NCBI GenBank assembly: GCA_035400945.1 | Contig: DAONAJ010000003.1 | Span: 88,676 to 152,675, forward strand | Direction: 5' to 3' | DNA from: Spirochaetota bacterium | GTDB lineage: Bacteria; Spirochaetota; UBA4802; UBA5550 | DNA: 64,000 bases | Shown: positions 16,267 through 45,038 of the stretch, piece after piece | Numbering within the stretch: position 1 is the first letter of the stretch | Layout of the letters: each line of letters starts with the position of its first letter | Program-made: the position numbers and the translations under genes | The notes under the pieces: generated by a model | What the model was told of the DNA's origin: nothing | Seen by the model: the letters and a program-made list of their open reading frames with translations, nothing else | The model's database searches: none

Positions 16267-17892
16267 TTAAACCAATCTTCTTATAACGATAACGGTGCAG
16301 TCATCTCCCGGCGGCTTCAGTCCGAGAAACCGGTAGAATTCATCCATGATATGGTCCAGGATAGCCCGGGCGGGACCGGCAGGCCCCCCTTCCAGGGATT
16401 CAATGATACGCTTCTGGCCGTATTGTTCCGCGGATTCATTGACGCTTTCATCAAGACCGTCGGTATACAGGAGCAGGACGTCATCCTTGGCCATGCGGAA
16501 CCGGACAACGTCAAAATCGCCGCTGATGTCATCCATGCCGAGGATGGTCCCCCGCTGGTCCCTGTCCTGCGGCTTGACCATGCCGGCCCTTCCGGTGCCG
16601 GCCCTCCTCATCAGCAGGGCGTGATGGCCGGCATTGACGTATTCCACGCGGTCATCCCTGAACCTGAGCACGATGCCGCTCAGGTAGTTGTCGACGCTGC
16701 TGATGTCCGATTTCAGGTCAGCGTTCACATTCTCAATGACCTTGCCGAGACCGGCATCCTTCATCTGGGTGAAATTCCTCCCGATGATCGATTTCGCCAG
16801 GAGGGTGAAGATCCCCGCCGATATGCCATGGCCCGAAACGTCAAAGAGGGAAAGGCCTGCCAGCCTGTTGTCATGGACGTAAAAGTCATACAGGTCGCCT
16901 GAAACCCCCGCCTTGGGAAGATAGTCGAAGGCCACATCCCACTCGTCCGACGCCGGGGCCTCCCTGGGGAACAGGCTCTCCTGCACCCCGGCCGCCATGG
17001 CCATGTCCAGGGACGCGACGCGCTGGGCGTCCTCCAGCTCGGCGTTGGTATGGACCAGGCGGTCGTTGATAGCTTCGAGCTCCTCCATGGCGGCGTGGAG
17101 CTCCTCGGTGCGCTCCTCCACCTTCTTCTCCAGGTTCCTGTTCAGCTCCTCGACCTCGATCTGGAGCCGGACATAGCGGTTCATCAGAATCTGCGCCATG
17201 GAAAGTATTATGATGATATAGGCGTATTCAATGAGGTATATGAAGGGGTAAACCGCCGCCCCCACCAGGACATCATTGGCCGCGGCGATGAAAAATATCA
17301 CGAAGGCGACAAGGAGGGGGAGAATCTTCCTGTTCCCCGATTTCAGGTCTTTCACGATCAGGTAGAGTATCCACACATACCCCGCCATCATGGAGACATA
17401 CTGCACCAGATAGATGAGGCCCGGATCCACTTCCTGGTAGGTGATGTTGATGTAATTTCCAAGCCTTACCGGTTTCAGCATCGGGCGGTCCAGCGACAAC
17501 GTGAGTTCGTTCCTGACCGCCAGGCCGAGTATGAAAAGAACGAAAAAGTATCCGGCGATAACATAAAACAGCTTGCCGATCCGGTAATGCGAGAAATCAA
17601 AGAGGAACCAGAGCACCGCGATGCAGAGAAGGGCCAGACTGGCAAACTGGAACCGCTGCCAGAACATGCCCTCGGCCAGGGTCTGCGCGTTGTAGAGGCC
17701 CCCGCAGAAGAGGTCGTAGGCGGAAACGATAAAGCAGGTCACGGCGAAGGAAAGCTGTTCTCTCTCCGACCTTCTCCTGAAATACATCCAGAGGTAATAG
17801 AATCCCACGTAGAACGAAACGGACGCGGACATAAAAACAGGCACTGATAACCAGTTCACGGATGCGATCCCTCCTGTACAGCTCTGGTTCAT
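16267..17892 (-). CDS. 7TM receptor (7TMR-DISM-like 7TM, family B) fused to PP2C/SpoIIE protein phosphatase
   Basis: 541 aa; 7 predicted TM helices, coiled-coil linker, SpoIIE/PP2C domain (GDLYDFYVHDNRLAGLSLFDVSGHG...YTDGL). Confidence 0.8.
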   Translation of the reverse strand: MNQSCTGGIASVNWLSVPVFMSASVSFYVGFYYLWMYFRRRSEREQLSFAVTCFIVSAYDLFCGGLYNAQTLAEGMFWQRFQFASLALLCIAVLWFLFDFSHYRIGKLFYVIAGYFFVLFILGLAVRNELTLSLDRPMLKPVRLGNYINITYQEVDPGLIYLVQYVSMMAGYVWILYLIVKDLKSGNRKILPLLVAFVIFFIAAANDVLVGAAVYPFIYLIEYAYIIIILSMAQILMNRYVRLQIEVEELNRNLEKKVEERTEELHAAMEELEAINDRLVHTNAELEDAQRVASLDMAMAAGVQESLFPREAPASDEWDVAFDYLPKAGVSGDLYDFYVHDNRLAGLSLFDVSGHGISAGIFTLLAKSIIGRNFTQMKDAGLGKVIENVNADLKSDISSVDNYLSGIVLRFRDDRVEYVNAGHHALLMRRAGTGRAGMVKPQDRDQRGTILGMDDISGDFDVVRFRMAKDDVLLLYTDGLDESVNESAEQYGQKRIIESLEGGPAGPARAILDHIMDEFYRFLGLKPPGDDCTVIVIRRLV

Positions 17893-18033
17893 GACCGGCC
17901 CCTCAGCCGCGGCCTTTATCCGCCCGCGCCGCAGGACAAGGCGGAATCGCCTGCCATGAATCCCTGCTGGTATATAAATCGGTTCCCCCGCCGATCAAAT
18001 TCAGCATTACAGCGGGGTTTTTGCCCCATATAA

Positions 18034-20973
18034 CTACGGCTTCCCTGCCGCCGGGCCGGCGCTGCCGGCAAAGGTGTCCCTGAACTTCTCGATCGTAATC
18101 CTGAACCGGCCTGAAAGCCTTCCCTCGCGGGCAGCGAGGCGGATGCCCAGGGCCATGTAGGCCGTGCGCATCGATATCTTGTAGGCGCGCGAAAGCCTGA
18201 TGGTCTCCGTCGTGGCCCACCGGAGTATGAATTTAAAGGCGTAATCGTACACCGTTTCGTCAACATGCCTCAGCTCGCCGTTCCAGGCGTCAGGGTGGAA
18301 CCTGCAGACCAGGTTGTGCACGATGGGATGGACGAACCCTTCCCGGTGCATGCGGCCGTAGCCGAAGACCTGGATCAGGCCGTTCAGCCATTCCAGATAC
18401 GAGGCCAGGACCCCGCCGGAATTGGCCAGGATATCGGGGAAGGAGATCCTTCCCATCTCGGTTAGGACGTCCTCCGCGTCGGCGGTCACCGGCCCGTTGG
18501 CGCCCTGGAGGACGTACTCCCCTTCCAGGACCCTCACGTTCACGGTCGTGCCGCGGCCGTCGCCGCGGTTGACGATGACGTCCTCGAGGGCGGAGGGGAC
18601 CACGACGTTCACGACCGCCGAAAGCGGCCGGATCGTGTCCGCCGGGATGAACTCGCCGCGGTCAAGGATTTCCCGGGGAGCGTCGGCGAGCCTGCATGTC
18701 CCGCTCCTGCAGAAGGCGTGAAGGCCGGCGATTCCCTCTATGCCCCGGTCGTTCGCCAGGGTGCCGCTGATGTCGGATATCATCTTTATCTTTCCCCCGA
18801 TGCCGTCGATGATCCCGGCAAAGGAGGCGCCCACCTTGCCGAAGCCCTGGACCGCGAAGGTGAGCATCCTGATGCGGCGGTGCGCCAGGCGGTAAAACTC
18901 TTCGTCGGAGGATAGTGCGTCGCCCACCCTGGCCGGATCGGCCCAGAGGGACGGGTCGCCGTAATCGCCGAAATTCTGCTGCGCCGCCAGTACCTCGACC
19001 AGGCCCCTGCCGGTGGCGCCGGTGCGGATCCGCAGCCCCCGCGCCCCGGGCTTCCCGGTTATGGAGGCGGCGGTATATCCTTCAAGCCTGTCGCGGTCGG
19101 AGGCGAGGGTTTTCACCAGCTCGCCGGAACCGGTGCTGATGCCGAAATTCTCTTTCAGGATGCGCGCCTCCGGGGAATCCGGGGCGAGGGAGCCGGCCAT
19201 GATGGCCTTCAGATCCCGGGAAGCGTTATCCGTTATGCGGTTGAACAGGATGCCGATCTCGTCCGCGCCGATGCCCACGTCCCCGGCGGGAACGTCGGAG
19301 AAGGGCCCCACGCCCGCCCGGTAATAAAGAAAATCGGCGTAGGCGTTGAGGACGTTTTCACGGGCCTCCTTCCCCTCCTCCGCCGGAAGGGAGCTGAAGC
19401 GCAGGTCTCCCAGGATGCCCCCCTTGCCGGCGGCGTAGAGGGGAATTCCCAGGCCGAGGGTCTTGAAGAGCATGTTGGTGGACAGGGCCCCCTCGCCGGA
19501 AAAGGAAACATGGTCCGCGTGGGCCCTGATCCCGCCCTTGCCGATCCCGATCCCGCTGATCCGGATAAAAAGGTACTGCCTGCCGGTCCGGGGCTCCCGG
19601 TAATCTTCATAATAAATGTCGCGGAAGGATATAAGGCGGATGATCTCCTCGTCCGTGAGGGAGCGCGCCGGGCGGTCCGCCTCGCGCTCCAGGGGCACCG
19701 TCGACGCAGTCACGATGTTCTTCAGGGTGGACCAGTAGTAATCGTTCTTCATCTCCGCCGTCGGGTTCAGGAGATAGTGCTTGATCAGGCCGAAGGTCTT
19801 TTCCCGTATGTCACGGTTCCCGTCGTTCAGCAGAAAGACCAGGGGTATCAGGTATTCCTTGCGCTTGTTCTTCTGCATCGCCTCGATCAGGTCAAGCTTC
19901 TCGTAATCCTTTGCGGTCCTGATGCGGTCCAGGAGCTCCCGTATCTCGCCCACCGAAACGGGGGCCGACTGGAGCAGCACCAGCCGGTTATAGAGCTCCC
20001 CTCTCAGGAAATCCTCAACCTCGGGCGAGAGCATCGCGGCCTCGACGCAGGTGGTGAGGGCAATGAAGGCGCGCCCGCCGATAAGGAACGTTTCGAAGTA
20101 CTGGCGGTTGATGGAAATGCCGCGGCGCTCGAAGATCCTGTTGATGGTGCTGAAGTTTTCCTGGAACTTCTCCAGGGGCAGCCAGACCCGGACCATCTTT
20201 TCGTCCGACCCGTCCTCCCGGTCGGGCATGACATCGATATACAGGTCTTCATCGTTGCGGATAAGGGAGCGGACCGACAGCCAGGGAAACAAATAGTTCT
20301 GGATATTGCGCTTTTTTGCATTATGGAGCGCCCTGGTCAAAAATCCGCTCCCGCAGGAGGCGATAAAGTCGCGGATGTCACCGGCGGCGACCGGCGGCGT
20401 TTGGCCGCGAAGCGCCTCCGCCATGAAGGCCGCGGCCCCATCACCTTTGCCGGCTTCGGCGGGCCGCGCCTCCTCCCTCTCGAGGATATAGAGCCTCCGG
20501 ATGTCCCTGTTCTCCGGGTGAAAGCGCACCAGGTACGAATAGAGGCGGAAGCGGCAGGGGCCGCCATCGCTCATGATGCGCTCAATGGCCGCCGTGGTCT
20601 TGCGGACAAGATCGGTCGTATCGGATATGAGGAAGAGGTGCTTGTCGGGAAAATCGCCGCGGACATCTATGTTCCGGTAACAGCCGTCGGCATCGCAGCG
20701 CTCCTTTTCCTGGTAACGGTTGTGCTCCAGGAGAAAAGAAACCTCCTCGATGCTGAGGGACAGCTCTTCCAGGTCACGGTAAAGATAGGGATAGTCCCAT
20801 GAATTGATTTTTGCGGCTATGCTCTCGAGCTCATGGATGATGGATTCGGGCGAAAGATCCGAATGGCTCACCAGGTGGTCATAGAGCCTCTTGACATCCT
20901 TGTCCGATATCAGCCGTGACTTGATCCGGTTCAATCTCTCAGCATAGGGATCCGCTCCGCTTTGTGCCAGCAT
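18034..20973 (-). CDS. Large Glu/Leu/Phe/Val-dehydrogenase superfamily protein (large NAD-GDH-like, about 110 kDa class)
   Basis: 979 aa; C-terminal half carries all GDH signatures (GIGKGGIR and AAGKGGILGD Lys motifs, DVPAGDVGIGADEIG, Rossmann VQGFGKVGASFAG, PDILANSGGVLASYLEW) with an internal insertion of about 35-40 aa; about 470 aa N-terminal region has no domain I recognise. Confidence 0.7.
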   Translation of the reverse strand: MLAQSGADPYAERLNRIKSRLISDKDVKRLYDHLVSHSDLSPESIIHELESIAAKINSWDYPYLYRDLEELSLSIEEVSFLLEHNRYQEKERCDADGCYRNIDVRGDFPDKHLFLISDTTDLVRKTTAAIERIMSDGGPCRFRLYSYLVRFHPENRDIRRLYILEREEARPAEAGKGDGAAAFMAEALRGQTPPVAAGDIRDFIASCGSGFLTRALHNAKKRNIQNYLFPWLSVRSLIRNDEDLYIDVMPDREDGSDEKMVRVWLPLEKFQENFSTINRIFERRGISINRQYFETFLIGGRAFIALTTCVEAAMLSPEVEDFLRGELYNRLVLLQSAPVSVGEIRELLDRIRTAKDYEKLDLIEAMQKNKRKEYLIPLVFLLNDGNRDIREKTFGLIKHYLLNPTAEMKNDYYWSTLKNIVTASTVPLEREADRPARSLTDEEIIRLISFRDIYYEDYREPRTGRQYLFIRISGIGIGKGGIRAHADHVSFSGEGALSTNMLFKTLGLGIPLYAAGKGGILGDLRFSSLPAEEGKEARENVLNAYADFLYYRAGVGPFSDVPAGDVGIGADEIGILFNRITDNASRDLKAIMAGSLAPDSPEARILKENFGISTGSGELVKTLASDRDRLEGYTAASITGKPGARGLRIRTGATGRGLVEVLAAQQNFGDYGDPSLWADPARVGDALSSDEEFYRLAHRRIRMLTFAVQGFGKVGASFAGIIDGIGGKIKMISDISGTLANDRGIEGIAGLHAFCRSGTCRLADAPREILDRGEFIPADTIRPLSAVVNVVVPSALEDVIVNRGDGRGTTVNVRVLEGEYVLQGANGPVTADAEDVLTEMGRISFPDILANSGGVLASYLEWLNGLIQVFGYGRMHREGFVHPIVHNLVCRFHPDAWNGELRHVDETVYDYAFKFILRWATTETIRLSRAYKISMRTAYMALGIRLAAREGRLSGRFRITIEKFRDTFAGSAGPAAGKP

Positions 20974-21015
20974 GATGACCGTTCCTCCTGACCGGGCGCA
21001 CGAACACGCGCTATG

Positions 21016-30093: not shown

Positions 30094-32262
30094 TTACAGC
30101 ACCTTGAAGGCATTGGTCACTCCCTCATAGGAGCTTATTTTACCGGTCCAGCCCGACTTCCAGTTCCCCTTGTGTCGGATCCGATACGTTCCCGGCTCCG
30201 CGTTTTTCGTGTGCCACGTTATGGTTATCTTCGAGTATGATATCCCGTCTCTCTGCCAGCGGTATGTTGTCTCCGGGTCCCAGTCGCGGGCCACGGGGAC
30301 GTAACTCCCGTTCACCAGCTTCTCGACGACCAGGAACGTGTCCTGCGTACGGAGATTGTTGTTGGGGTGGCCGCCCCAGAACTGCGCGCTTACCGTGTCG
30401 CCCCGGCTGTAGCTCGCGCCGGGCTGGGTTATGACATCGCCGAAATTCTTGAAGAGCGGCTTGTCGTCCAGCACCACCTTGGCGGTAAAATCCACGGTGA
30501 GCCCCGTCACGTCCTGGGGAGACGGGCCGGCGGGGACATCGCTGCCGTCAACGATGGCCCTGCAGAGCTTCGCGTATTCCTGGCGGAACGCAGCCAGTTC
30601 GTTGGGACCGAACTGCGTGCAGGCGCCCTCGTACCACTGCATCGCGTATTCCTCCCTGGTGGCAAGATAGGATGCATAGGAGTTGGCGAGGCTCGATACA
30701 ACCGCCATGTCCACGCCGAGTCCGGACAGGCCGGTCACCAGCGTGTCCTTGATGCGGCGTCCCGACATGGTGGTGACCTCGGCGGGAACGGCCGCTATGG
30801 CCAGGTTCCCTATCTTGAGCACCTGGAGCGGCATGACCTGCGGCGTCATGGTCGGCCCGTTGATATTGATATGGGCGATGCCGGTCGGGATGAGCACCGG
30901 TTTCTCGGCCTGGCATTTCTTGTATGCCGCGTCATTGGTGGCGGGCCACGCGAAGGCGAAGACGCCGCCGAGGAACGTGCTCAGGAACGTGCTGGCGGCA
31001 TTGTCGCTCCAGTTAAGGCTGGCAACGGTGGTCCCGTTCGGGAACAACGGCGACGGGCTCGGGTTGTCCGACGGGCTCCCGGCGGAGAAGGAAGCGCCCA
31101 TGCCGGCAGCGCACGTGGTGCATTTCGTCTCTTCCACGTACAGCGTCCGCATGTCCACCCATTCATGGCGGTAATCGATCGAGCCTGAAAGCTCCCTCGT
31201 TGCGCCGTTATACAGTTCTTTCGCCTTATTGTACTGCTTGAGGACCGCATTCTCAAGGCTTTTATTCTTTTCAAAGGTGACGTCAGCCGGGGCCTGGCCG
31301 AAGCCGATGTTGGGCGTCACGTCGCCAGCGCTGGCCTGGGCGAAGGCGGCGACGAAGGTCCTGGCGGCAAGGTAATCGGTTCCCTTGTCCTTTTCGAAAA
31401 GGTATGATGCCCACCCCTTGTTATCGCCGCTGATCAGTCTGTTTTCAGGCCCGATACTGTCGGGATGAACCGCGTACCAGTTCACCATGCCGATCTCCTC
31501 GCCGTCAAGGGTGACGAACTTCAGGAGGGTCATGGTTGTATCGGTAATGCTGCTGTACCGCGCCCGCTCCGCGGCGGGATTGTTGTTATAGGCGGTCTCG
31601 GCGCGGTTTCCGCCGCAGCCCTCGATGGCGCCCTGGGCCACGAGTATCCTCCCCCGCTTCAGGTTGTTATGGGCCCTGAGTATCGACTGGTAAATGCCGT
31701 CAACGATGGCGTTGAAGTTCTGCTTCACGAAGCCGTTGATGGTCACATCGTAGAGGAAATATCCCGAGTAACCCCCGGGGCCGTTGTGGGTGTGCGTGGC
31801 GGAAAGGAGAACGTTCTTCTCATTGTAATATTTCGCCAGATCCGCGTTCCCCGCGATTTTCTCGCAGACCTTGACTTTGACCATCTGGAAGAGCATCCCC
31901 AGGTCCGCGCTCACGAAAACGACCCGCTTGTCAGCGTCACCGATTATGTAGGCGCGCGAGCGGAGCCGCAGGTGAATGCCGGATGTCTTCTGCTCTGACA
32001 CGGCGTATCCCATCATGCCGATTTCAGCCGCTGGTCCGGTTATATCGTAGATCCCGGCGCCGATAAGGTACACGCTTCCGCCGGACCCGGTTGTTTCATT
32101 GGGTTGTATGGCGGTTCCGCCATTACTGTCTGTCTGGCCTGAATCCGATCCTAGAAGGGGAAAGGGATTGTTGTCTGAATCACTATCACAGCCTGGATAC
32201 ACCAGACATAGCATCGAAAAAAGAAAAACAGCCATGAAAAATTTTTTCTTACCATTGCCCAT
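30094..32262 (-). CDS. Neutral/alkaline ceramidase (lipoprotein)
   Basis: 722 aa; signal peptide with Cys lipobox; N-terminal block closely matches the neutral ceramidase signature (YLIGAGIYDITGPAAEIGMMGYA...GIHLRLRSRAYII...VVFVSADLGM...NVLLSATHTHNGPGGY). Confidence 0.8.
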   Translation of the reverse strand: MGNGKKKFFMAVFLFSMLCLVYPGCDSDSDNNPFPLLGSDSGQTDSNGGTAIQPNETTGSGGSVYLIGAGIYDITGPAAEIGMMGYAVSEQKTSGIHLRLRSRAYIIGDADKRVVFVSADLGMLFQMVKVKVCEKIAGNADLAKYYNEKNVLLSATHTHNGPGGYSGYFLYDVTINGFVKQNFNAIVDGIYQSILRAHNNLKRGRILVAQGAIEGCGGNRAETAYNNNPAAERARYSSITDTTMTLLKFVTLDGEEIGMVNWYAVHPDSIGPENRLISGDNKGWASYLFEKDKGTDYLAARTFVAAFAQASAGDVTPNIGFGQAPADVTFEKNKSLENAVLKQYNKAKELYNGATRELSGSIDYRHEWVDMRTLYVEETKCTTCAAGMGASFSAGSPSDNPSPSPLFPNGTTVASLNWSDNAASTFLSTFLGGVFAFAWPATNDAAYKKCQAEKPVLIPTGIAHININGPTMTPQVMPLQVLKIGNLAIAAVPAEVTTMSGRRIKDTLVTGLSGLGVDMAVVSSLANSYASYLATREEYAMQWYEGACTQFGPNELAAFRQEYAKLCRAIVDGSDVPAGPSPQDVTGLTVDFTAKVVLDDKPLFKNFGDVITQPGASYSRGDTVSAQFWGGHPNNNLRTQDTFLVVEKLVNGSYVPVARDWDPETTYRWQRDGISYSKITITWHTKNAEPGTYRIRHKGNWKSGWTGKISSYEGVTNAFKVL

Positions 32263-32439
32263 TCCGGACCCCCTTCAGGTATTACTATGATACCAGGTTT
32301 TTTAAATTATATTAAAAAAATAAACCAAACAGCCGGTTTGATATTTAATTTATATTATATTATCATTAAAAAGTCATATCAAAATCTGACCGATCAGTAT
32401 TTGAATAGTAGTCAAATCGAATGCGGGGTCAGAGTAAAT

Positions 32440-32478: not shown

Positions 32479-34722
32479 ATGAAAGTAAAAAAAACAAGTA
32501 TCTACACATCCCTTCAGGACTTAATAATAAAAAACTTTCACCTGAGCCCTGAAGCGATGATGGCTCAATTCTGTCAGGGGATCATGGATCTCTACCCTCT
32601 CCAGGGTGCGGCCATTGCCGCAAGAAGCGGGACAGGCTTTGCACTGCGCTATAGCCGAAACATCTTTAATGATAACCCCGACATGGAATTCGACTATACC
32701 GATGCCGATATCATTGTATTCTCAAAGGAAGATAAGCACTCCAAAAACGAGCTCTTCTTTATTCCCGATGGGGAGCGGACCATACTCCTGATACTGGCAC
32801 CATCCAAGAGAAACCGCATCAACGTCCCGGAGATACAGGACGCGGCCAATCTCCTTGCCAGGGTCCTGGTGCAGCAGAAGATGAAGGCCGATCTGCTCCT
32901 CAAGTACAGCAACTACAAGACCATATTCAAGAAAACCTCGAACCTCACGGCAATACTCAACACCCGCGGGGAAGTGGTGGAATGGAACGAGGCGGCGGAG
33001 GAGCTCTTCGGCCGGGACCTTGCCGGCACCCCCGTCAGCTACGTTGATTTCGTCCATGATGACGAACTGACGCGAACCAGGGAGCTGTTCTCCTCGATGT
33101 ACCGCGGCATCATGAAATACCGCAAAACCCTTGACCCGGAGCGGCTGGGGAATGATCCGGCCTACCTGAAAACGGCGCGGGAAACCATCATGGAGATGGG
33201 AACGAGCCAGGGCTTCACCAGGCTGACAAACCGGAGCGGCAGCAAGACCCTTGACGTTGATTACACCATCAGTCTCATCATCCCCCCTGGTTCGCTGGAC
33301 ATACTGGGCTGCATCGTCACCACCACCGATGTCACCAAGCGGAAGGTCATGCGGGAGCGGCTTGAGGAGTCGGAGCGGAAATACCGCGAGCTCTTCAACC
33401 TGGTGCCGCTCTTCTCGATGCTCATCGACACCTCGGGAAAAACCGTTGATTACAACTATGTTTCAATGGAAGACTACGGCCTTGACCCCGGACAGGAGGC
33501 CCTGTCATACATGGATTTCATCCACGAGGAAGACCGCAACCGGGCCGCGTCGCTGTTCATCAACCTCTACACCAGCGCGATCGAGATTAAGAACCGCTGG
33601 ATCAAGGACAAGGCCATCACCATGGATGAATGCGCCAGGGAACTGCGTTCGCTCCGCATCAGGAACGAGCCGCTCCGTCTGCTGAGCCGGGGGAAAGACA
33701 AGTATTTCGAGACCCAGTTCAGCGCCAGCCTCTGGATCGGCGAATCAGACCTCGAGATAAAGGGCGCCCTCCTCTCCGCCATTGACGTGACGGAACGGAA
33801 CAATTACCGGCGGAAACTGGAGGAATCGGAAAAGAAATACCGGGAGCTTGTCGAGGAGAAGACCAGGGACATCATCTTCTCCCTCGACAACAGGGCCCAG
33901 TTCATCATGGTCAACAGCAACATCAGGGAAAAGCTCGGCTACCCGGAGGATTCAGTCATCGGGAAGCACATCATCGACATCCTCTACAAGGACCCCATCG
34001 ACAAGAACCAGATAAACCGGGAAACCTTCCTGGAGAACATCCACCGCGTCCTCGATGACCGCGTCCCCGACGTTCGCTTCAAGGCGGTCTGCGACCACAA
34101 GTTCCTCGGTGAACCGGTGACCCTCCAGTTCAAGCTGGATCCCATCATCGAGAACGACGCCGTCATCGGCATCATGGGCTTCGCGTCGGAGATATCGGAC
34201 GATCCCCTGCGGGAATATCTGGAAAAGGAAACCCTGTCCTACACCATCGACAACCGTCTTACCATAGCGGACGAGGTGAGCTTCCGGATAACGCGCAATC
34301 TGCAGAAGTACCTGCCCATCGGCAAGATAAGCCTGCTGCGCCTCGGCATCAGGGAGATGATCATCAATGCCATCGAACACGGGAACCTGGGCATAACCTA
34401 CGAGGAGAAGACCCTGGCCCAGAAGAACCAGAGCTACCATGATTTACTCCGGGAGCGGCAGATGAGCACCGAGAACCGCCACAAGAAGGTACGCATCGAT
34501 TACCAGTTGAATGAAGAAGCCATAACCTACACCATCAGGGACGAGGGCAAAGGCTTCGACTACCGGAAATTCATCAAGCTCAAGGTCAAAGCACTGAACG
34601 ACCAGATGCTGCAGCACGGCCGCGGCATCCTCATCACCCGGTCCGTTTTTGACCAGATACAATATAACGAAAAGGGAAACGAAGTTCACCTGGTGGCTTT
34701 TTTAAAGAAGAATACCGATTAA
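32479..34722 (+). CDS. Multi-PAS sensor with C-terminal RsbW/SpoIIAB-like GHKL ATPase (anti-sigma-factor-type Ser kinase) domain
   Basis: 747 aa; at least three PAS-like repeats each followed by the coiled-coil signature (RLEESERKYRELF; KLEESEKKYRELV), C-terminal HATPase_c_2-like block (GIREMIINAIEHGNLGI...TIRDEGKGFD...GRGILITRSVFD). Confidence 0.7.
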   Translation: MKVKKTSIYTSLQDLIIKNFHLSPEAMMAQFCQGIMDLYPLQGAAIAARSGTGFALRYSRNIFNDNPDMEFDYTDADIIVFSKEDKHSKNELFFIPDGERTILLILAPSKRNRINVPEIQDAANLLARVLVQQKMKADLLLKYSNYKTIFKKTSNLTAILNTRGEVVEWNEAAEELFGRDLAGTPVSYVDFVHDDELTRTRELFSSMYRGIMKYRKTLDPERLGNDPAYLKTARETIMEMGTSQGFTRLTNRSGSKTLDVDYTISLIIPPGSLDILGCIVTTTDVTKRKVMRERLEESERKYRELFNLVPLFSMLIDTSGKTVDYNYVSMEDYGLDPGQEALSYMDFIHEEDRNRAASLFINLYTSAIEIKNRWIKDKAITMDECARELRSLRIRNEPLRLLSRGKDKYFETQFSASLWIGESDLEIKGALLSAIDVTERNNYRRKLEESEKKYRELVEEKTRDIIFSLDNRAQFIMVNSNIREKLGYPEDSVIGKHIIDILYKDPIDKNQINRETFLENIHRVLDDRVPDVRFKAVCDHKFLGEPVTLQFKLDPIIENDAVIGIMGFASEISDDPLREYLEKETLSYTIDNRLTIADEVSFRITRNLQKYLPIGKISLLRLGIREMIINAIEHGNLGITYEEKTLAQKNQSYHDLLRERQMSTENRHKKVRIDYQLNEEAITYTIRDEGKGFDYRKFIKLKVKALNDQMLQHGRGILITRSVFDQIQYNEKGNEVHLVAFLKKNTD

Positions 34723-38420: not shown

Positions 38421-38442
38421 GTTATGGATGATTTCCTTATGC

Positions 38443-38688: not shown

Positions 38689-38872
38689 GGTGGTCCTCTC
38701 GTAAAGTATGGATTTGCTCCCGCGCTGCCTGCCGCGGGGGTTATCGCATGAGCAATAATGACTGGTTATAGTTATTAAGGAGGGGCTTTAATGCGCAAGA
38801 ATAATTTTATTATTGACTATTTTTTTTACCATTCGATTTCTTTACCCAACAGACTCCGAACCGAGGAACACA

Positions 38873-39847: not shown

Positions 39848-39943
39848 CAGCCATAAAAGGATAACGCCCGCGCTCCCGTCCGCTTTGACCGGGATAAACC
39901 GCGTTCAATCCCCCCTATTAGCCGCGGTCCGGGAACATGCAGG

Positions 39944-39984
39944 ATACAATAAAAAAGCACTGCCCTGATGACGGGCAGTGCCCG
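39944..39984 (-). terminator. Rho-independent terminator after the 40028-40261 lipoprotein gene (minus strand)
   Basis: Minus-strand hairpin gcactgccc-gtcatca-gggcagtgc followed by TTTTTTATT. Confidence 0.55.
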
Positions 39985-40027
39985 GATGCCGCATAAAACA
40001 AGTTATGCGTCCTCGCGAACAATCATG

Positions 40028-40261
40028 CTACTTGATGGCCGCGCATTTGTCGCCGCACGCCTTTGCGTTCTTTTCGCATTCAGCTTTCTTTTTAGCGTCG
40101 ACTTTCTTGGTCTTCGCATCGGTCGCCTTGCTGATGCAGGCCGTCTTCTCGGCCGCGCACTTGTCGTTGCAATCCTTCCGTTTCTTCTCAACGCTCGCGC
40201 AGGAGACCAGGCCCGCCATAAAAACGGCAGCCATCATGACAATTATTGTTCTTTTCATCAA
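40028..40261 (-). CDS. Small Lys/Cys-rich lipoprotein
   Basis: 77 aa; signal peptide and lipobox (AGLVSC); mature part rich in K and regularly spaced Cys ([12 protein letters not shown]...[15 protein letters not shown]). Confidence 0.5.
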
Positions 40262-40644
40262 TTCCTCCGGTTTGGGTAATTTTGTTGCTATTTCGTATCA
40301 GCCGGCGATTTTATTCAAGAATTTTTTACCATCCACTTCCCGGACACACGGATTATTTTACTACCATCGTACGCGGCATCAGGGTCCTGCGGAACCGCAC
40401 AACACCTGTCCGAAACAGCATGGCGCGACAACTTCCAATTTCGGCACAAAAATGTCCGGGAAAAGATCCAGTAATTGAATTACCTCCATCACTGTGTGCT
40501 CTTTCAATCTATTCTGCTCTCCTTTCAATCAGGTTTTGCCTTGACTCTAGCGCGGGTGGTTTGCTAGCCTGCATGGAGAGGTTTCAAGAGTTTTATAAAG
40601 AATCTCTGTCCTGTTTAAACATAAAAAATCAAAGGGGTAGGCAA

Positions 40645-41502
40645 ATGGAAATCAAGAAAATTTGTGTGCTGGGCGCCGGCCTGATGGGCAACGGAATCGC
40701 GCAGGTCTGCGCCCAGGCCGGGTACGAAGTGGCCATGCGCGATATCGAACAGCGTTTTGTCGACGGCGGGATGAACACCATCAAAAAGAACCTGGGCCGC
40801 GACATGGAAAAGGGCAAAATCACCAAGGAGCAGATGGACGCGGTCCTGGGACGCATCAAGCCCACGGTGGACCTGAAGGAAGCGGCGGCCGGTGCTGATG
40901 TGGTGGTCGAGGTCGTCATTGAAGTCATGGATGTGAAGAAAAAGGTCTACGAGGAGCTCGAAAGCATTGTCCCGGCCCATTGCCTCTTCTTTACCAACAC
41001 ATCGGGCCTGAGCATCACAGAGATGGCCGCCGCGACCAAAAGGCCCGACAAGGTCATCGGCACCCATTTCTTCAACCCGGTGCCGGTCATGAAGCTCCTG
41101 GAACTGATCTGCTGCCACCAGACATCCGAGGAGACCCTGGCCGTGGCAAAGGAATGGGGAAGGAAAATCGGCAAGGAGGCCATTATCGTAAAGGAAGCGC
41201 CGGCCTTCGTCGTCAACCGCATACTCTGCACTATGATCAATGAAGCCTTCTTCACCCTGGATGAAGGCCTGGCCACGGCAGAGGACATCGACAAGGGCAT
41301 GATGCTGGGATGCAACCACCCCATCGGGCCCCTGGCGCTGGGCGACCTGATCGGCCTGGACACCCTGCTCCGCATCATGGAGGGCCTGCACCGGGAGCTG
41401 GGAGACAAGTACCGCCCCGCACCGCTCCTGAGAAAACTTGTCCGTGCGGGAAACTACGGCCGCAAGACCGGCCGCGGAGTATACGACTACAGCAAAAAAT
41501 AA
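40645..41502 (+). CDS. hbd: 3-hydroxybutyryl-CoA dehydrogenase (3-hydroxyacyl-CoA dehydrogenase family)
   Basis: Start set at [21 protein letters not shown] with RBS AAAGGGG; NAD-binding and C-terminal 3HCDH domains; the track ORF has a long spurious upstream extension. Confidence 0.85.
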
Positions 41503-41518
41503 TATAGCCGATCCCGCT

Positions 41519-41550
41519 GTGAAGGCACGGCAGCAAGCTCGTGCCTTCAC
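41519..41550. terminator. Stem-loop (10-bp stem) between convergent hbd and the 41588-41974 gene
   Basis: gtgaaggcac ... gtgccttcac; no clear U-tract on either strand. Confidence 0.35.
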
Positions 41551-41587
41551 CTTCATAGTCTGATTCGGGGATATCCTCCGCGCTCCA

Positions 41588-41974
41588 TCATCCCCCCTTC
41601 AGCTTTTTAAGTTTCTCGCGACCTTTCTCTGTCGTCCTGAGCTCGAATGGAAACGTATCCGAGAATACCTTCATTTCAACCCATTTATCCGGATTCCTGA
41701 TGAACCCATTCAGCTCCTCTTTCGAGACTTCTCTGCTCACGACCGGAACGTAAAAGTCCTCGTCTTTCATTACATACTCTGTTTTAATTACCGTGATCAA
41801 TCCTTCTTCAACGAGAGATCCGATAACCGCGCAGGCGAACCTGCATGCATCACCGTGGCCGAGCTTCTTGTCCCGAAATTGTATCTCGGTGACCAGGTTA
41901 CCCACGTTCAGGCCGAAGTCATCGGCCTCGATCAATACAGCTCCCTCGATTTCCATAATATCAATCATGCTCAT
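41588..41974 (-). CDS. Hypothetical protein (128 aa, no recognisable domain)
   Basis: ORF with coding-like composition; acidic N-terminus, basic C-terminal tail (KLKKLKGG). Confidence 0.45.
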   Translation of the reverse strand: MSMIDIMEIEGAVLIEADDFGLNVGNLVTEIQFRDKKLGHGDACRFACAVIGSLVEEGLITVIKTEYVMKDEDFYVPVVSREVSKEELNGFIRNPDKWVEMKVFSDTFPFELRTTEKGREKLKKLKGG

Positions 41975-42112
41975 TCTCCATAAAAAGGGTATTTACTATT
42001 GATACGGATTGAGGGGCTAAAAATTAAAAATATTTTGAAGCTAACTGCTTGTTAGGAGAGTCATGTATTGAATATCTCACGCATGATGGAAAACGGCAGA
42101 TGTGAAAGATCG

Positions 42113-42141
42113 AAAAAGCGCGGCCCCGGGGCCGCGCTTTT
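42113..42141 (-). terminator. Palindromic terminator after the RRM gene (bidirectional-capable)
   Basis: Perfect 20-nt palindrome gcgcggccccggggccgcgc flanked by A5 and T4. Confidence 0.55.
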
Positions 42142-42152
42142 AAGCGTAGAGT

Positions 42153-42428
42153 CTAGCGGAATCCTCTTCCGCCCCCGCCGCCGCCTCTCTTGTCTCCTTT
42201 CGGGCGGGCCTCATCCACCCGGAGGTTGCGCCCCTCAAGGTTAAAGCCGTCAAGGGCATTCTTCACGTTCTCCGCTTCCGACTGGCTGGACATCTCGACA
42301 AAGCCGAAGCCCTTGTCGCCGATGATCCGGATATCGACCACTGTGCCGTGCTGCGCGAAAAGTTCCTTTAACTGCTGTTCGCTCGCGGAATAACTGATGT
42401 TTCCGACGAAGAGTTTGCTCCCGTGCAT
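42153..42428 (-). CDS. RRM-type RNA-binding protein with Gly-rich C-terminal tail
   Basis: Start at MHGSKLFVGN with AGGAGG RBS; RNP-2 (LFVGNI) and RNP-1 (KGFGFVEM) motifs; GGGGGGRGFR tail. Confidence 0.8.
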   Translation of the reverse strand: MHGSKLFVGNISYSASEQQLKELFAQHGTVVDIRIIGDKGFGFVEMSSQSEAENVKNALDGFNLEGRNLRVDEARPKGDKRGGGGGGRGFR

Positions 42429-42616
42429 ACCATCCTCCTTTTTAATAACTATCGTGCTTAACAATGTCCGAAAAAGGAGATAGTTACATGGGGTCGAAGA
42501 CCTACATCCTTAGTGAGGAACTATCAAGCGTGTTTTGCTGCAATGATACATAGCCGCATAAAATAAGCAACCAATTTATCTGTTCATGGAATTACCGGGG
42601 CCGTGTTGATTGTCAT

Positions 42617-43033
42617 TTGCTCTATTATATTGTTGACAATAATTCATCAGCAAGAATGATTCGATGCTATAAAAATTTTCGGATTTACCTGGGCCACAGC
42701 GACCTTAATGCCCTGGGCCTGGTCAACAGCTACTATGTCAATATGACCGACGAAACACTGGTCTATAACCACACCATGACGGTGCCGGCCGGGCTCAAGG
42801 CGGGAGACTGGGTCGATATCCCCCTTGACATCGCCTTCGATTATGATCCCGGAAGCAATGTGGGAATTTACATTCTTCACGATGCCGGGTCGGGAGGGAT
42901 TGAAAACTTTGTGCATGCGGAGCAGGATGCGTACGAATATCCGTCACGCCTGCTGGGGATGGAAAACCAGTCTTCCAGCCTTCCCGGATGGAAAGCGGAT
43001 ATATCGTACTCGATCCGATTGGGCATGGAATAA
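42617..43033 (+). CDS. Hypothetical protein (start uncertain)
   Basis: 138 aa ORF; a sigma-70-like TTGACA box lies inside its 5' end, so the true start may be downstream; no domain recognised. Confidence 0.3.
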   Translation: MLYYIVDNNSSARMIRCYKNFRIYLGHSDLNALGLVNSYYVNMTDETLVYNHTMTVPAGLKAGDWVDIPLDIAFDYDPGSNVGIYILHDAGSGGIENFVHAEQDAYEYPSRLLGMENQSSSLPGWKADISYSIRLGME

Positions 43034-43118
43034 AACGCTTATCAGTAAACATGAAACGCCGGCGCTGGCTCCGCCGGCGTTTTACACCCGCCATTTATAT
43101 CGCGATCAATACGCCCCG

Positions 43119-43517
43119 TCACTCAAAGGGTATACAGCATTGCCCGTCAGCGCCCTGGGGACAATCCATGAATACCGTTCCGCCGGTTTTGCCTGGGCAG
43201 GATTCGGTCTTCAGTCTGCAAACGCCTCCTATGGCGGCGCACGACGTAACCGGCAGGCAGCATACGGCGCTGTCAGGCTCGTCCGGCAGGTCAGGGCATC
43301 CCCATCCGACCCATCCGACATGACTCTCACCGCAGCTGTTATACAGGTCATTGCAGAACCCGCCAACCCGCTCGCAATGGGTGCCCGATAATACGGCCAT
43401 CAGGGCTGTCGCAGTGTTTTTCGACGTATCGGATTTCTTTTCGCACTGTAAAGCCATGAGGGACAGGCTTCCCGCCAGTATCGAGACAACAGCAGTCATG
43501 CGGATAAATTTCCTCAT
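43119..43517 (-). CDS. Secreted cysteine-rich protein
   Basis: 132 aa; signal peptide; about 16 Cys in mature region with repeated GG[FV]C...C...C pattern (GGFCNDLYNSCGESH / GGVCRLKTESCPGK) and CC pairs. Confidence 0.5.
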   Translation of the reverse strand: MRKFIRMTAVVSILAGSLSLMALQCEKKSDTSKNTATALMAVLSGTHCERVGGFCNDLYNSCGESHVGWVGWGCPDLPDEPDSAVCCLPVTSCAAIGGVCRLKTESCPGKTGGTVFMDCPQGADGQCCIPFE

Positions 43518-43773
43518 AAATCCTCCCCGGTCAATATCCGGAAAGAGAAACCGTTATCGTGCGAACGCAGGTTTCGTTTTTCCCGGTGTTAATTAAAGCC
43601 ATTGTACGCAATAAGGTAGTAATCCGGACATCCGCAGACATCGTGGAAAACCCCGAGACGGGACTATTTTTCCCGGTTTCTTCATATATCGCGCCAAAGT
43701 ATTATCATTGACAATGATGAAATTATACACATAAATCAATCGGCGGAAAAAATCGGACCTGGCCCGGGATTAC

Positions 43774-45038
43774 ATGGGGCTCAGAGGGGAAATGCAGATG
43801 AACGCGACCTTGTGCACCGGGCTGGCGGCGGTCCTCGCCGGTATGTGTTCAATATCGTTTATTTATTTCGGGTTTTATCTCATCCCGGCGGCAAACAGAG
43901 ACGAACGCTTCAGGCCCCTCGTGTACCTATGCTTTTTTTCATCCGCCTGGAGCTTCTGCTATGTGTTGTATTTCCTGAGCAGGGACGCGTCCGCGCAGGA
44001 ATTCTGGCAGAGGTTCACCTTCGCGGGACAGTTCGCTTTTGCGTTTCTCTTGTGGTTCGTGATACGGTACTCCGATCCAATCCGGAGCAGGATCGCACAA
44101 ATAATCCCGGCCTCAATCCTGTGGATTCCCCCCTTCATCGGCTCATACATTGGAATTACCGAGAACGCGGTGGTGAGGGATTTCCCTTCGGGATTCTGGT
44201 TCTTATATGCCCAGATTCAAACTTCAATATACAATCTGGCCTCGATGATACTGCTGATTGTCTACCATTCCAGGCAGAAGACCAACAAGGGCAGGATGCA
44301 GGTCTATATCCTCACGTCGTCCGGGTTTGTGCTGGCCATCCTCTCATGGATGGCCGACTATTTGTTCGGCTACCGGGGCACCAGCAACATCATACCTTTC
44401 TGGCTGCTGGTCTGGATCGGCATACTTCTCTACATCATAAAAAAAAATACCGCCTTATCACCATCATGCCGGACTTCATCAGCAGGGACATCACCGAAAA
44501 TATCGAGGAAGGGATCATCCTCCTTGATACGTCCTTTAAGGTGATATTCAGCAACCGCGCGGCGCACGCACTGGTGAACGCGCGTCAGGGGGAGGAGGTC
44601 CGCTGGTTGGACATCGTTGTGGAGAAGCATGCGGTCCGGAGGGAATTCTCCGGACTGTTGAATTCAGACACGGCATCGGCCCGCATCCGTGTCAATATCC
44701 GGCAGCGCGGCGACGGAAGCGCAAAGATCCCCGTTGACCTGAAGGTGAAAAAGGTCATAGACTCCTTCAAGGACCTTTCTGGATTTCTCATCATCATGTC
44801 ACTGGTGAAGGAGCCGGGACATCTCAGAACCCTGCACGGCATAACGTCACGGGAGCTCGATGTGATCAGGCAGCTGGCCACCGGCAAGACGAACCGGGAG
44901 ATAGGGGTCATTCTCGGCATGACGGTACGTACCGTTGAAACACATATCACGAGCATCTTCGCCAAGATCGGGATCAAGAACAGGACCGAGCTCATGAGCG
45001 TGCTCTCCGGCTACGAGGGTTTCAAGGGGCAGGAATGA
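43774..45038 (+). pseudogene. 7TM receptor (family B)-PAS-LuxR one-component regulator, interrupted by a +1 frameshift at an A9 tract
   Basis: N-terminal 7TM (FWQRFTFAGQFAF, paralog of 16267 and 28204 N-termini) in frame 1 to 44544; PAS-like and LuxR/GerE HTH (ITSRELDVIRQLATGKTNREIGVILGMTVRTVETHI) in frame 3 to 45038; frames meet at AAAAAAAAA 44439-44447, and one extra A would fuse them (…LLYIIKKKYRLITIMPDF…). Confidence 0.7.

Follow-up and report, generated by a model that had tools for sequence, protein, structure and literature searches.

Seven-helix sensor modules joined to phosphatase, AraC-type and LuxR-type outputs in a Spirochaetota genome, with a candidate operator for the AraC-type fusion

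Seven-helix membrane receptors of bacteria that sit on diverse intracellular signalling modules include the 7TMR-DISM proteins, such as RgsP and the RetS/LadS and SagS-type proteins, which Anantharaman and Aravind are said to have described in 2003 as PF07695 7TM regions with PF07696/DISMED extracellular domains; a PP2C output is a classical 7TMR-DISM combination. Among local regulators, AraC/XylS proteins activate sugar catabolic operons, as with AraC and araBAD or RhaS, and in Pseudomonas aeruginosa SphR is paired with the ceramidase cerN. A further seven-helix module, HisKA_7TM, appears in the literature we found solely as the sensor of archaeal histidine kinases (PMC5847659). ToxR, CadC, TcpP and TfoS unite a sensor and a DNA-binding domain in one membrane protein without phosphotransfer, so that DNA is bound at the membrane. 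ToxR-like proteins are bitopic: the winged HTH is N-terminal and cytoplasmic, the sensor C-terminal and periplasmic (PMC5936718).

We analysed a 64-kb stretch of a spirochaete genome (the window), in which a preliminary description had drawn three single-gene fusions of a 7TM module to an output domain. This holds for genes 1 and 2, which are intact open reading frames, but not for gene 3, which is split at a run of nine A (A9). The genome comes from anaerobic digesters. The three genes and their parts are as follows.

16267-17892, minus strand: gene 1, 7TM module, coiled-coil linker and SpoIIE/PP2C; single intact ORF, 541 aa
~17182-17838, minus strand: HisKA_7TM module of gene 1 (Pfam)
~16276-16857, minus strand: SpoIIE/PP2C phosphatase domain of gene 1 (Pfam)
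18034-20973, minus strand: Glu/Leu/Phe/Val-dehydrogenase-like gene, 979 aa
28204-29886, minus strand: gene 2, predicted membrane-anchored one-component regulator; single intact ORF (open 28204-29913)
29176-29886, minus strand: 7TM module of gene 2, residues 1-237
28546-28989, minus strand: GAF domain of gene 2, residues 300-447
28210-28530, minus strand: AraC double HTH of gene 2, residues 453-559, seven helices in the model
43774-44544, plus strand: gene 3a, HisKA_7TM module of the LuxR-type subfamily, 256 aa, likely start ATG 43798
44439-44447, plus strand: A9 run at the frame break, holding an in-phase A_AAA_AAA heptamer
44448-45038, plus strand: gene 3b, PAS-like region and GerE/LuxR HTH, -1 frame, no internal stop

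The N-terminal modules of all three genes pass the gathering cut-off of PF16927 (HisKA_7TM, 28.6 bits, a model of 224 positions), with 38.0 bits for gene 1 (residues 19-231, model 2-209), 38.2 bits for gene 2 (residues 18-239, model 3-220) and 35.5 bits for gene 3a (model 8-213), which supports a common family for the three. The 7TMR-DISM-like assignment proposed earlier was not borne out by PF07695 (7TMR-DISM_7TM, cut-off 29 bits), as gene 1 reached 22.8 bits and genes 2 and 3a gave no match at E <= 0.1. The modules had also been called near-identical, and here the shared family stands but the degree of likeness does not: genes 1 and 2 are 51.8% identical over 255 aa (BLASTP, E 1e-88) and both carry the reported motifs VS.YVGFYY.WMYFRRR and FWQR.QFAS, but gene 3 shows only 22% identity to gene 1 (E 7e-5) and no BLASTP match to gene 2. 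A profile-profile comparison of the two 7TM subfamilies aligns just TM1-TM3, with 77% probability and E 1.9e-5.

Besides missing the PF07695 cut-off, the three genes differ from 7TMR-DISM receptors in having no extracellular DISMED domain (no PF07696 match by Pfam search), and TM1 starts 3-20 residues from the protein start, with no N-terminal DISMED1 or DISMED2 ahead of it. They resemble these receptors in that both place a 7TM region on varied intracellular outputs, and the two Pfam models overlap on the clade: PF16927 matches 49 of 66 sampled relatives and PF07695 matches 28 over the same region (counted at E <= 1e-5), as it does weakly in gene 1, and some orthologues match PF07695 as well. 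The three modules are best explained as paralogous seven-helix sensors of the HisKA_7TM/7TMR-DISM_7TM superfamily, each on a different cytoplasmic output. P0084 and P0086 are classical 7TMR-DISM-AraC proteins, whose N-terminal part measures ~200 aa, and a full DISMED2 histidine kinase adjoins the gene 2 homologue in locus L018.

Our survey of architectures is based on an exhaustive profile search and on Pfam annotation of 66 representatives; a word-indexed search with the 7TM-only alignment gave 13 matches, hydrophobic words saturating its candidates, and is unfit for the purpose. The profile search found 4004 cluster representatives at E <= 1e-3, and the module lies at the extreme N-terminus (start residue 1-20) in 149 of the 150 top relatives. 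This position, shared by the three genes, and their scores above the curated cut-off are their likeness to HisKA_7TM proteins; the difference is that they lead into a PP2C phosphatase, GAF-AraC and PAS-like-LuxR, with no HisKA or HATPase_c found by Pfam search, whereas most of the sampled relatives are PAS-containing histidine kinases (HATPase_c in 38 of 66, followed by SpoIIE in 8, HTH_18 in 6, GGDEF in 3 and MCPsignal in 2). The name HisKA_7TM reflects this majority architecture, and a kinase core is no requirement of the Pfam model. The survey of 7TM-AraC and 7TM-LuxR fusions that had been suggested yielded ~45 and ~27 full-length homologue clusters (at 90% identity), respectively, and every cluster bearing a source name comes from Spirochaetota MAGs; homologues that match in both length and architecture have 38-94% identity for the AraC type and 41-67% for the LuxR type. 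Pipelines label such proteins 'AraC-like DNA-binding protein', 'CsgD family regulator' or 'RsbU', and none of the three 7TM proteins has an NCBIfam equivalog. To our knowledge, no member of the clade has been studied experimentally and none has a known ligand, and we regard the three genes as uncharacterised members of an already known kind of receptor. The fusions had been described as rare, which is right in relative terms, with membrane-integrated proteins put at ~3% of one-component systems in a figure that PMC5936718 takes from Ulrich 2005, but the architectures themselves recur in dozens of clusters.

The outputs that had been read from the sequence were largely recovered, namely SpoIIE, GAF plus AraC and LuxR (GerE), although the PAS domain of gene 3 is only PAS-like. 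The SpoIIE domain of gene 1 spans residues 346-539 (Pfam, E 1e-29) and has the PP2C metal-binding Asp motifs DVSGHG351, TDGL477 and DDCT530. Its translation start is more likely GTG 17859, giving 530 aa, since AGGAGG lies just before it and this is the length of the orthologues, which include P0078 (81% identity), P0080 (78%) and P0079 (57%); the dehydrogenase-like gene is directly upstream of gene 1 orthologues in every case. Gene 2 is called from ATG 29886 (560 aa), and its Pfam domains are GAF at 311-439 and HTH_18/HTH_AraC at 488-565 (E 6.7e-20 and 1.2e-9), a C-terminal double HTH as in AraC/XylS proteins, from which it differs in that 7TM and GAF replace the cupin domain for ligand binding and dimerisation. 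Relatives of gene 2 are known at 85-94% identity.

Fusions of this kind could in principle arise when annotation or assembly mis-joins adjacent genes. That is true of gene 3 as first drawn in this genome, and truncated versions occur in long-read MAGs, such as the gene 2 orthologue P0050 in locus L013; we rejected this truncation as biology because four neighbouring genes of L013 are frameshifted too. Genes 1 and 2 are nonetheless uninterrupted, identical products occur on 15 contigs from several samples (gene 2 is called from ATG 29886 on 15 public contigs), dozens of homologues are full length, and the predicted model of gene 2 runs a continuous helix over the junction. For genes 1 and 2 mis-joining is already refuted, and as a general explanation it is barely credible.

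Hydropathy scans placed seven transmembrane segments in gene 1 and in gene 2, and six in the repaired gene 3, where the seventh (TM5, ~residues 140-165) was assigned by eye. The AF2 model of the module (pLDDT 90, pTM 0.87) has seven helices and a beta-hairpin, and in the full-length model of gene 2 TM7 runs unbroken over residues 210-267, followed by a disordered linker (270-299), the GAF and the AraC domain. Lys and Arg number 9-10 on the predicted inner loops and 4-5 on the outer ones, and the seven helices together with the positive-inside rule place the output domains, DNA-binding domains included, in the cytoplasm, as had been anticipated. The best PDB fold matches to the predicted bundle are class C GPCRs (GABA-B, CaSR, GPR156; Foldseek E 2e-4 to 1e-2, TM-score 0.5-0.63), a resemblance of predicted fold only and no family membership, with 10-14% identity, no sequence-level relationship and no G-protein coupling.

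Beyond the conserved beta-hairpin between TM4 and TM5 the modules have no extracytoplasmic part. Across the 66 divergent relatives, conservation is highest at polar residues: K/Y/E in this hairpin and, on what is predicted to be the outer face, WQR where TM3 begins, ND where TM6 ends, and YxFYxxEY spanning the TM6-7 loop and the beginning of TM7. We propose that a ligand or membrane cue is read there, at the outer face of the bundle, and that the signal would pass down TM7, which continues unbroken as a cytoplasmic helix of ~30 residues. In gene 1 the module would switch a PP2C phosphatase of the RsbU/SpoIIE type and feed a partner-switching cascade, while gene 2 would act through GAF on its AraC double HTH as a membrane-anchored one-component transcription factor. 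The modules might instead serve merely as anchors or localisation devices, with the cytoplasmic GAF and PAS reading the signals, as these are ligand-binding domains themselves and a large extracellular domain is absent. We find this unlikely, given that gene 1 has neither GAF nor PAS between its module and the phosphatase, that a single helix is enough for an anchor, and that conservation peaks at polar positions of the outer face and hairpin.

The surroundings of gene 2 are listed here.

21016-26492, minus strand: conserved operon 3' of gene 2 (FGGY kinase, class II aldolase/epimerase, class III aminotransferase, MFS transporter)
24891-26492, minus strand: FGGY kinase, operon member
24043-24735, minus strand: class II aldolase/epimerase, operon member
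22396-23886, minus strand: class III aminotransferase, operon member
21016-22254, minus strand: MFS transporter, operon member
26633-26658, minus strand: 26-bp palindrome TCATTTTCTGATTGGTCTGTTTTTGA, candidate operator, ~135 nt upstream of the FGGY operon
26866-28197, plus strand: soluble SpoIIE/PP2C gene, 443 aa, between gene 2 and the FGGY operon in some lineages only
~30007-30040: intrinsic terminator with a T9 tail, after the ceramidase gene
30094-32262, minus strand: neutral ceramidase, upstream of gene 2 and followed by the terminator
32379-32404, plus strand: second palindrome copy TCAAAATCTGACCGATCAGTATTTGA, between the divergent ceramidase and PAS-HATPase_c_2 genes
32479-34722, plus strand: PAS-PAS-HATPase_c_2 (RsbW/SpoIIAB-type kinase), divergent from the ceramidase gene

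The order gene 2, FGGY, Aldolase_II, Aminotran_3, MFS is kept from 91% down to 44% regulator identity, apart from L018, where Aldolase_II and Aminotran_3 are swapped, and L016, where both are missing; this linkage of gene 2 to the operon is a new finding. The FGGY kinase recalls AraB and the class II aldolase/epimerase AraD/FucA, as in the araBAD and fuc systems, but the operon has a class III aminotransferase in place of an isomerase, and no operon enzyme reaches an NCBIfam equivalog cut-off. The nearby ceramidase parallels SphR and cerN, and its linkage to gene 2 is limited to relatives with at least 65% regulator identity. The soluble SpoIIE gene is inserted in the window, L010 and L012, and not in L011, L013, L014, L016 or L018.

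The palindrome, likewise new here, occurs exactly twice in the window, against 0.02 copies expected. Its FGGY-side copy is conserved in six related species-level loci and lies 134-135 nt from the FGGY ATG in both the window and L018, and the second copy has the same place in L010, L011, L013 and L014; a metagenome scan for the operator found just three further contigs and no extra diversity. A consensus scan made no sigma-70 promoter call beside the FGGY copy, so TTGAnn is a mere suggestion for a -35 box. We propose the adjacent FGGY operon and the ceramidase/PAS-kinase promoter region as the likeliest targets of gene 2, through this shared palindrome. An AraC domain usually covers 17-20 bp, many family members use direct repeats, and 12-bp half-sites are commoner with dimers of the LacI, GntR or CRP type than with an AraC double HTH. 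Since 26 bp is compact for two AraC domains, a regulator encoded elsewhere, for example a dimeric repressor, could bind the palindrome while gene 2 regulates something else, a possibility that we take seriously and yet consider doubtful. Gene 2 is flanked by the two copies, and in other loci the FGGY copy comes after the gene 2 stop, the distance being 17-72 nt in L011, L016 and L018, ~90 nt in L014 and ~390 nt in L013. Gene 2 is also the sole conserved DNA-binding protein of the cluster, the only other regulator being a small HTH-only AraC gene in L016, and if gene 2 dimerised in parallel along the TM7 helix and GAF, its two DNA-binding domains would be arranged with two-fold symmetry.

The region 43774-45038 is not one ORF: frame 1 stops at 44544, after a 34-aa out-of-frame tail of gene 3a, and the rest is in the -1 frame. 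This frameshift makes the earlier gene 3 model wrong as drawn, and of the three fusions only this one proved to be mis-fused in this genome. The GerE domain of gene 3b is clear (57.5 bits against a cut-off of 23.5, E 1e-15), with PAS_8 at 15.5 bits and PAS at 14.6 bits both under their Pfam cut-offs; some homologues match PF13188 or PF00989. Intact homologues have A4-A7 at the break site, encoding I-KK-YRF in a continuous frame. Four independent assemblies agree on A9. In this genome the tract has grown to nine A, two A beyond the frame-keeping A7. The full-length regulator would arise only if the frame were restored, either by one extra A through RNA-polymerase slippage or by -1 ribosomal frameshifting on the A_AAA_AAA heptamer; otherwise gene 3 would be a young pseudogene. 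Slippage on 9A/9T runs is documented, including in the activator gene mxiE, and the genes known for slippage or frameshifting comprise Thermus dnaX (A9), Shigella mxiE (T9) and IS elements (PMC1088944). Gene 3 resembles these in having a coding-strand A9 exactly at the frame break, and differs in that homologues do not keep A9 as a conserved slippery sequence and that no stimulatory hairpin lies within 5-9 nt of A9 (the nearest structure starts ~20 nt downstream, z = -2.0).

We give about even chances to gene 3 being a recently inactivated pseudogene, in which expansion of the A-run broke the 7TM-LuxR fusion and at most a 7TM stub is functional. The four assemblies examined all carry the break, a stimulatory RNA structure is absent next to the slip site, and no orthologue above 67% identity was found, as compared with 85-94% for relatives of gene 2, which suggests a dispensable, lineage-specific paralogue. 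Against inactivation, the 196 downstream codons are stop-free and as conserved as the upstream part (downstream/upstream ratio 0.995, against 1.00 +/- 0.14 for intact pairs), nine A is a run length for efficient slippage by bacterial RNA polymerases (PMC1088944), and the -1 slippery heptamer is in phase. Gene 3 may also have split, so that a 7TM protein now stands alone and a soluble PAS-LuxR regulator starts at ATG 44466 or GTG 44541. Gene callers do predict a 165-aa GerE protein from 44541, with a GTGA overlap with the stop, and the in-frame ATG 44466 would retain the entire PAS-like domain, but 44466 has no Shine-Dalgarno before it, the 44541 start loses the most conserved PAS segment DITENIEEGIILLD, and 15 homologues among 19 aligned sequences are full-length fusions, so we judge a split into two proteins improbable. 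In the same alignment P0024 and P0028 have an incomplete N-terminal 7TM module, and P0026 alone ends early beyond that module; we rejected a shared frameshift site for P0026, whose contig is of long-read style and whose truncation falls within the PAS region. We found no conserved neighbours around gene 3 homologues. Two of three such loci contain a divergent unknown protein of ~700 aa, which is missing from the window.

Taken together, we consider it probable that the three genes are 7TM sensors with separate outputs, that gene 2 acts on the palindrome-bearing targets, and that gene 3 is either recoded or a young pseudogene. A bolder and quite improbable extension would make gene 2 and its ~45 clusters GPCR-like 7TM receptors for an extracellular or membrane-borne compound, perhaps a sphingoid or amino-polyol in keeping with the ceramidase and the operon, that activate the palindromic operator at the membrane, with gene 1 relaying the same cue to its partner-switching phosphatase and A9 of gene 3 used as a slippage switch for the ratio of 7TM-only to 7TM-LuxR protein.

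Only a small share of one-component systems are membrane-anchored transcription factors, and the studied ones, such as ToxR and CadC, have a single helix. The AraC-type and LuxR-type fusions likewise unite sensor and DNA-binding domain in the membrane, but with a polytopic N-terminal 7TM sensor and a C-terminal AraC or LuxR domain, the reverse of the ToxR order. A seven-helix bundle directly on such a domain would be the shortest possible GPCR-like route from receptor to promoter. The frameshifted gene 3 shows that domain-fusion claims from raw sequence need frame checks, and, as the architectures are already in dozens of database entries, current understanding is not overturned. What the analysis yields is a testable pairing of a regulator with two conserved palindromic sites and a conserved catabolic operon, which would open to study in a heterologous host a family so far annotated by domain names alone.

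The membrane receptor fusions of the preliminary description are real for two of its three genes, and the third needs correction. The genes concerned are the following.

16267-17892, minus strand: gene 1, 7TM module and SpoIIE/PP2C phosphatase
28204-29913, minus strand: gene 2, 7TM module, GAF and AraC DNA-binding domain
43774-45038, plus strand, as first drawn: gene 3, 7TM module, PAS-like and LuxR DNA-binding domain

Genes 1 and 2 are each a single ORF, as proposed. The gene 1 ORF encodes 541 aa, and a 530-aa product is likelier because its orthologues start at its residue 12 and AGGAGG precedes the GTG at 17859 encoding that residue; gene 2 is called from ATG 29886 (560 aa) on 15 contigs. 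Gene 3, also drawn as one ORF, is broken here within a run of nine A: frame 1 from 43774 reaches a stop at 44544 (256 aa), and the PAS-like and GerE/LuxR parts are read in the -1 frame, as far as 45038.

All three modules match HisKA_7TM (PF16927), with 38.0 bits in gene 1 (cut-off 28.6), 38.2 bits in gene 2 and 35.5 bits in the 256-aa part of gene 3, and are members of this family by Pfam's own criterion. SpoIIE is matched in gene 1 (E 1e-29), and GAF and HTH_18/HTH_AraC in gene 2. The assignment to 7TMR-DISM (PF07695) had to be abandoned, as gene 1 scores 22.8 bits against a cut-off of 29, genes 2 and 3 have no match in the Pfam search, and the extracellular DISMED domain of classical 7TMR-DISM receptors is lacking from the module of this clade; the two are related, but the genes' modules are not members by score or by DISMED. 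Classical 7TMR-DISM forms fused to AraC do exist (database proteins P0084 and P0086, 7TM at 193-448). The motifs quoted for "near-identical" modules are present, but genes 1 and 2 share 51.8% identity over 255 residues (E 1e-88), and gene 3 only 22% with gene 1. Profile-profile comparison of the two module subfamilies gave 77% probability (E 1.9e-5) over TM1-TM3.

A profile built from 22 modules and searched against 1.84 billion cluster representatives matched 4004 proteins at E <= 1e-3, 970 at <= 1e-10 and 345 at <= 1e-30. The module begins at or before residue 20 in 149 of the 150 best matches, the exception being P0234 (module at 180-423), and the proteins bearing it range from 209 to 2218 aa. 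Among 66 relatives, PF16927 was matched in 49 and PF07695 in 28, in the same region, which puts the clade on the borderline between two Pfam models that overlap. The commonest output is a histidine kinase (HATPase_c in 38 of the 66, HisKA in 35, with PAS in ~28, GAF in 13 and a receiver in 11), and phosphatases (SpoIIE, 8) and AraC regulators (HTH_18/AraC, 6) are regular minorities, next to GGDEF (3), HD (2) and MCPsignal (2). The window also encodes a 647-aa hybrid histidine kinase (56598-58541, minus strand; HisKA, HATPase_c, receiver), whose N-terminal membrane region of ~240 aa has no Pfam match and matches our 7TM profile weakly (E 3.8e-4); this is possibly a further 7TM sensor, more distantly related.

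Hydropathy gave seven segments each in genes 1 and 2 and six in the frame-joined protein of gene 3, where the seventh (TM5, ~residues 140-165) was assigned by eye. Lys+Arg residues number 9-10 in the loops that follow TM1, TM3 and TM5 and 4-5 in the remaining loops, indicating an N-out, C-in topology with all output domains in the cytoplasm, which agrees with the placement proposed earlier for the DNA-binding domains. The AlphaFold2 model of the gene 2 module (pLDDT 90.2, pTM 0.87) has seven helices (3-28, 33-56, 61-90, 96-114, 146-174, 177-200 and 209-237) and a beta-hairpin at 126-143 between TM4 and TM5. No PDB entry matched the module by sequence, and by fold it comes closest to the transmembrane domains of class C GPCRs (GABA-B 6w2y, E 2.4e-4; CaSR; GPR156), with TM-scores of 0.5-0.63 and identities of 10-14%, which is a likeness of fold and not family membership. 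In the full-length model (pLDDT 80), TM7 is a single helix (210-267), followed by a disordered Gly/Pro/Ser linker (270-299), the GAF domain (300-447) and a seven-helix AraC domain (453-559). Residues invariant or nearly so in 66 divergent relatives (W67-Q68-Q71, P126, K129, Y141, E143, G147, N196-D197, Y205, F207, Y209, E212 and Y213) map in this topology to the outer ends of TM3, TM6 and TM7 and to the hairpin, from which we infer an outward-facing binding site. Both this distribution and gene 1, whose only sensory domain is the module, speak against a mere anchoring role.

The frame break in gene 3 coincides with the nine-A run at 44439-44447, where homologues have ATTAAAAAATAC, ATAAAAAAATAC and similar sequences of A4-A7; the run is two A longer than the in-frame A7. 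The same A9 is present in four short-read assemblies made independently from different samples (loci L005-L008) and is therefore not a random assembly error. The zero-frame codons are ATA AAA AAA AAT, which puts the classical -1 heptamer A_AAA_AAA in phase within the run. A -1 frameshift, or one non-templated extra A in the mRNA with equal effect, would give ...LYIIKKKYRLITIMPDF... and a 421-aa fusion. According to Baranov et al. (PMC1088944), many bacterial genomes begin to show selection against slippage at runs of nine A or T, and ORFs disrupted at such runs can still give full-length protein; mxiE, an activator gene, and Thermus dnaX (A9) are among their examples. The 196 codons downstream of the run without a stop, and a downstream/upstream ratio of homologue similarity of 0.995 (1.00 +/- 0.14 among intact pairs), speak for continued use; against it, we found no stimulatory structure adjoining the run, the run is not kept in homologues, and the homologue search yielded no close orthologue. 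Gene 3 has about an even chance of being a pseudogene; expression through slippage or frameshifting is possible, though we hold it only tentatively, and use as two separate proteins is unlikely.

As a family, the 7TM fusions are real. The repaired gene 3 protein retrieved ~27 clusters at 41-67% identity, and the 7TM-LuxR homologues (405-431 aa) carry PF16927 and PF00196 within one ORF, with the junction I-KK-YRF-ITITPDFISRDITENIEEG. Gene 2 has ~45 clusters of full-length homologues (38-94% identity; PF16927, GAF and HTH_18), and orthologues of gene 1 show 57-81% identity. Homologues carrying a source name are all "Spirochaetes/Spirochaetota bacterium", and JGI labels them "AraC-like DNA-binding protein", "DNA-binding CsgD family transcriptional regulator" or "RsbU". 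P0026, a LuxR-type homologue (L009, 2501-3921; 62% identity), is cut off inside the PAS-like region and not at the KK junction, with ~640 nt downstream uncalled, and probably represents either a further broken copy or an error of assembly. Two 7TM-LuxR homologues have upstream of them a divergently transcribed gene for a ~700-aa protein (L020, 2433-4565; L022, 2751-4862) that has no Pfam match and is present neither beside gene 3 in the window nor in L021.

Genes 1 and 2 flank one metabolic cluster, and their sensor modules are 52% identical, which would be compatible with one cue driving two outputs. The features of this region are as follows.

18034-20973, minus strand: large dehydrogenase gene
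21016-26492, minus strand: FGGY operon (FGGY kinase, class II aldolase/epimerase, class III aminotransferase, MFS transporter)
26633-26658: palindrome copy 1, 135 nt before the FGGY start (134 nt in L018)
26866-28197, plus strand: soluble 443-aa SpoIIE/PP2C gene, convergent to gene 2 and 6 bp from it
30007-30040, minus strand: intrinsic terminator after the ceramidase gene
30094-32262, minus strand: ceramidase gene
32379-32404: palindrome copy 2, between the divergent ceramidase and PAS-HATPase_c_2 genes
32479-34722: PAS-HATPase_c_2 kinase

At every locus examined, the gene 2 homologue (91, 89, 88, 65, 50 and 44% identity) is followed on the same strand by the FGGY kinase and the MFS transporter, and at all but L016 also by the aldolase/epimerase and the aminotransferase; a ~980-aa dehydrogenase related to Glu/Leu/Phe/Val dehydrogenases often comes next. 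None of the operon's enzymes reached an NCBIfam equivalog cut-off, and the set resembles a kinase-aldolase pathway of the ara/fuc type in which a transaminase takes the place of the isomerase. The window, L010 and L012 have the soluble SpoIIE gene, and L011, L013, L014, L016 and L018 lack it; it is therefore a lineage-specific insertion that parted the regulator from the conserved operon. The terminator (GC stem AAGCCGCCG...CGGCGGCTT, then T9, which is the window's second A9 run on the plus strand) ends ceramidase transcription, so gene 2 has its own promoter. P0050, a 357-aa truncated gene 2 orthologue, was rejected as a real form: in L013 (CAVSFD010000002.1, a 4.8-Mb contig of a long-read-style MAG) four neighbouring genes are broken as well. 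There tblastn finds the orthologues of gene 2, the PAS kinase, FGGY and the aminotransferase each in two pieces, which fits indel errors. In L018, a hybrid histidine kinase with classical 7TMR-DISMED2 and 7TMR-DISM_7TM (727-3564) lies 2.4 kb upstream of the gene 2 homologue, indicating that both receptor types coexist in these genomes.

Alignment of the regions upstream of the FGGY gene revealed a conserved 35-nt block, the core of which is a 26-bp palindrome, TCAWWWWCTGAY-NN-RTCWGWWWWTGA. With up to three mismatches it occurs at exactly two places in the 64-kb window, against 0.02 expected; the FGGY copy is kept in L010-L014, L016 and L018, and the ceramidase copy in L010, L011, L013 and L014. 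Gene 2 encodes the sole conserved DNA-binding protein of the cluster, and if this protein dimerised in parallel through the TM7 helix and GAF, its two DNA-binding domains would be placed symmetrically. On these two grounds we propose the palindrome as a candidate gene 2 operator, a reading that we favour slightly, although two AraC domains have little room on 26 bp. One lineage encodes a 137-aa AraC-HTH-only protein between the 7TM-GAF-AraC and FGGY genes, just past the palindrome (L016, 7916-8329; L017, 3325-3738); it is 61% identical to the gene 2 C-terminus and possibly represents a soluble copy of the DNA-binding domain.

Orthologues of gene 1, found in three lineages (57-81% identity), always lie directly downstream of the large dehydrogenase gene (~920-980 aa, Glu/Leu/Phe/Val family; L023, 5152-7923; L025, 2239-5187). 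The link holds in L023 without the FGGY operon upstream, and L025 has the order MFS-dehydrogenase-gene 1-MCP, as in the window. Partner-switching parts lie nearby, namely the PAS-HATPase_c_2 kinase and the additional SpoIIE gene; the window ORFs scanned included none with a STAS domain.

The window belongs to a 262-kb contig repeatedly recovered from anaerobic-digester metagenomes (JGI 3300010357, ENA ERZ22666056 and others), and closely related MAGs are labelled Spirochaetota or Leptospirales. Ordinary housekeeping, flagellar (fliK-flgD-flgE) and metabolic genes surround genes 1-3. Two tandem genes for START-domain (lipid-binding) proteins (59153-59851 and 59952-60629, both minus strand) share the window with the neutral ceramidase. 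A 1021-aa ORF (51400-54465, minus strand) in its most GC-rich part (0.656) had no Pfam match at E <= 1e-4, and neither did the nearby ORFs 46955-48049, 48069-49142, 60712-61998 and 62139-62945.

HisKA_7TM has been described as an archaeal kinase sensor (PMC5847659), and a limited literature search found no mention of it elsewhere, nor any paper in which these 7TM modules are linked with AraC or LuxR outputs. The proteins work in the same mode as membrane-integrated one-component systems, and their layout is the reverse of that of ToxR/CadC. The architecture had been called rare, which is apt in that membrane-integrated forms make up ~3% of one-component systems (PMC5936718), but such fusions are already frequent in databases. 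The proteins are thus uncharacterised members of a known receptor kind; what is usefully added here is the conserved operon, the pair of palindromes and the A9 frameshift.
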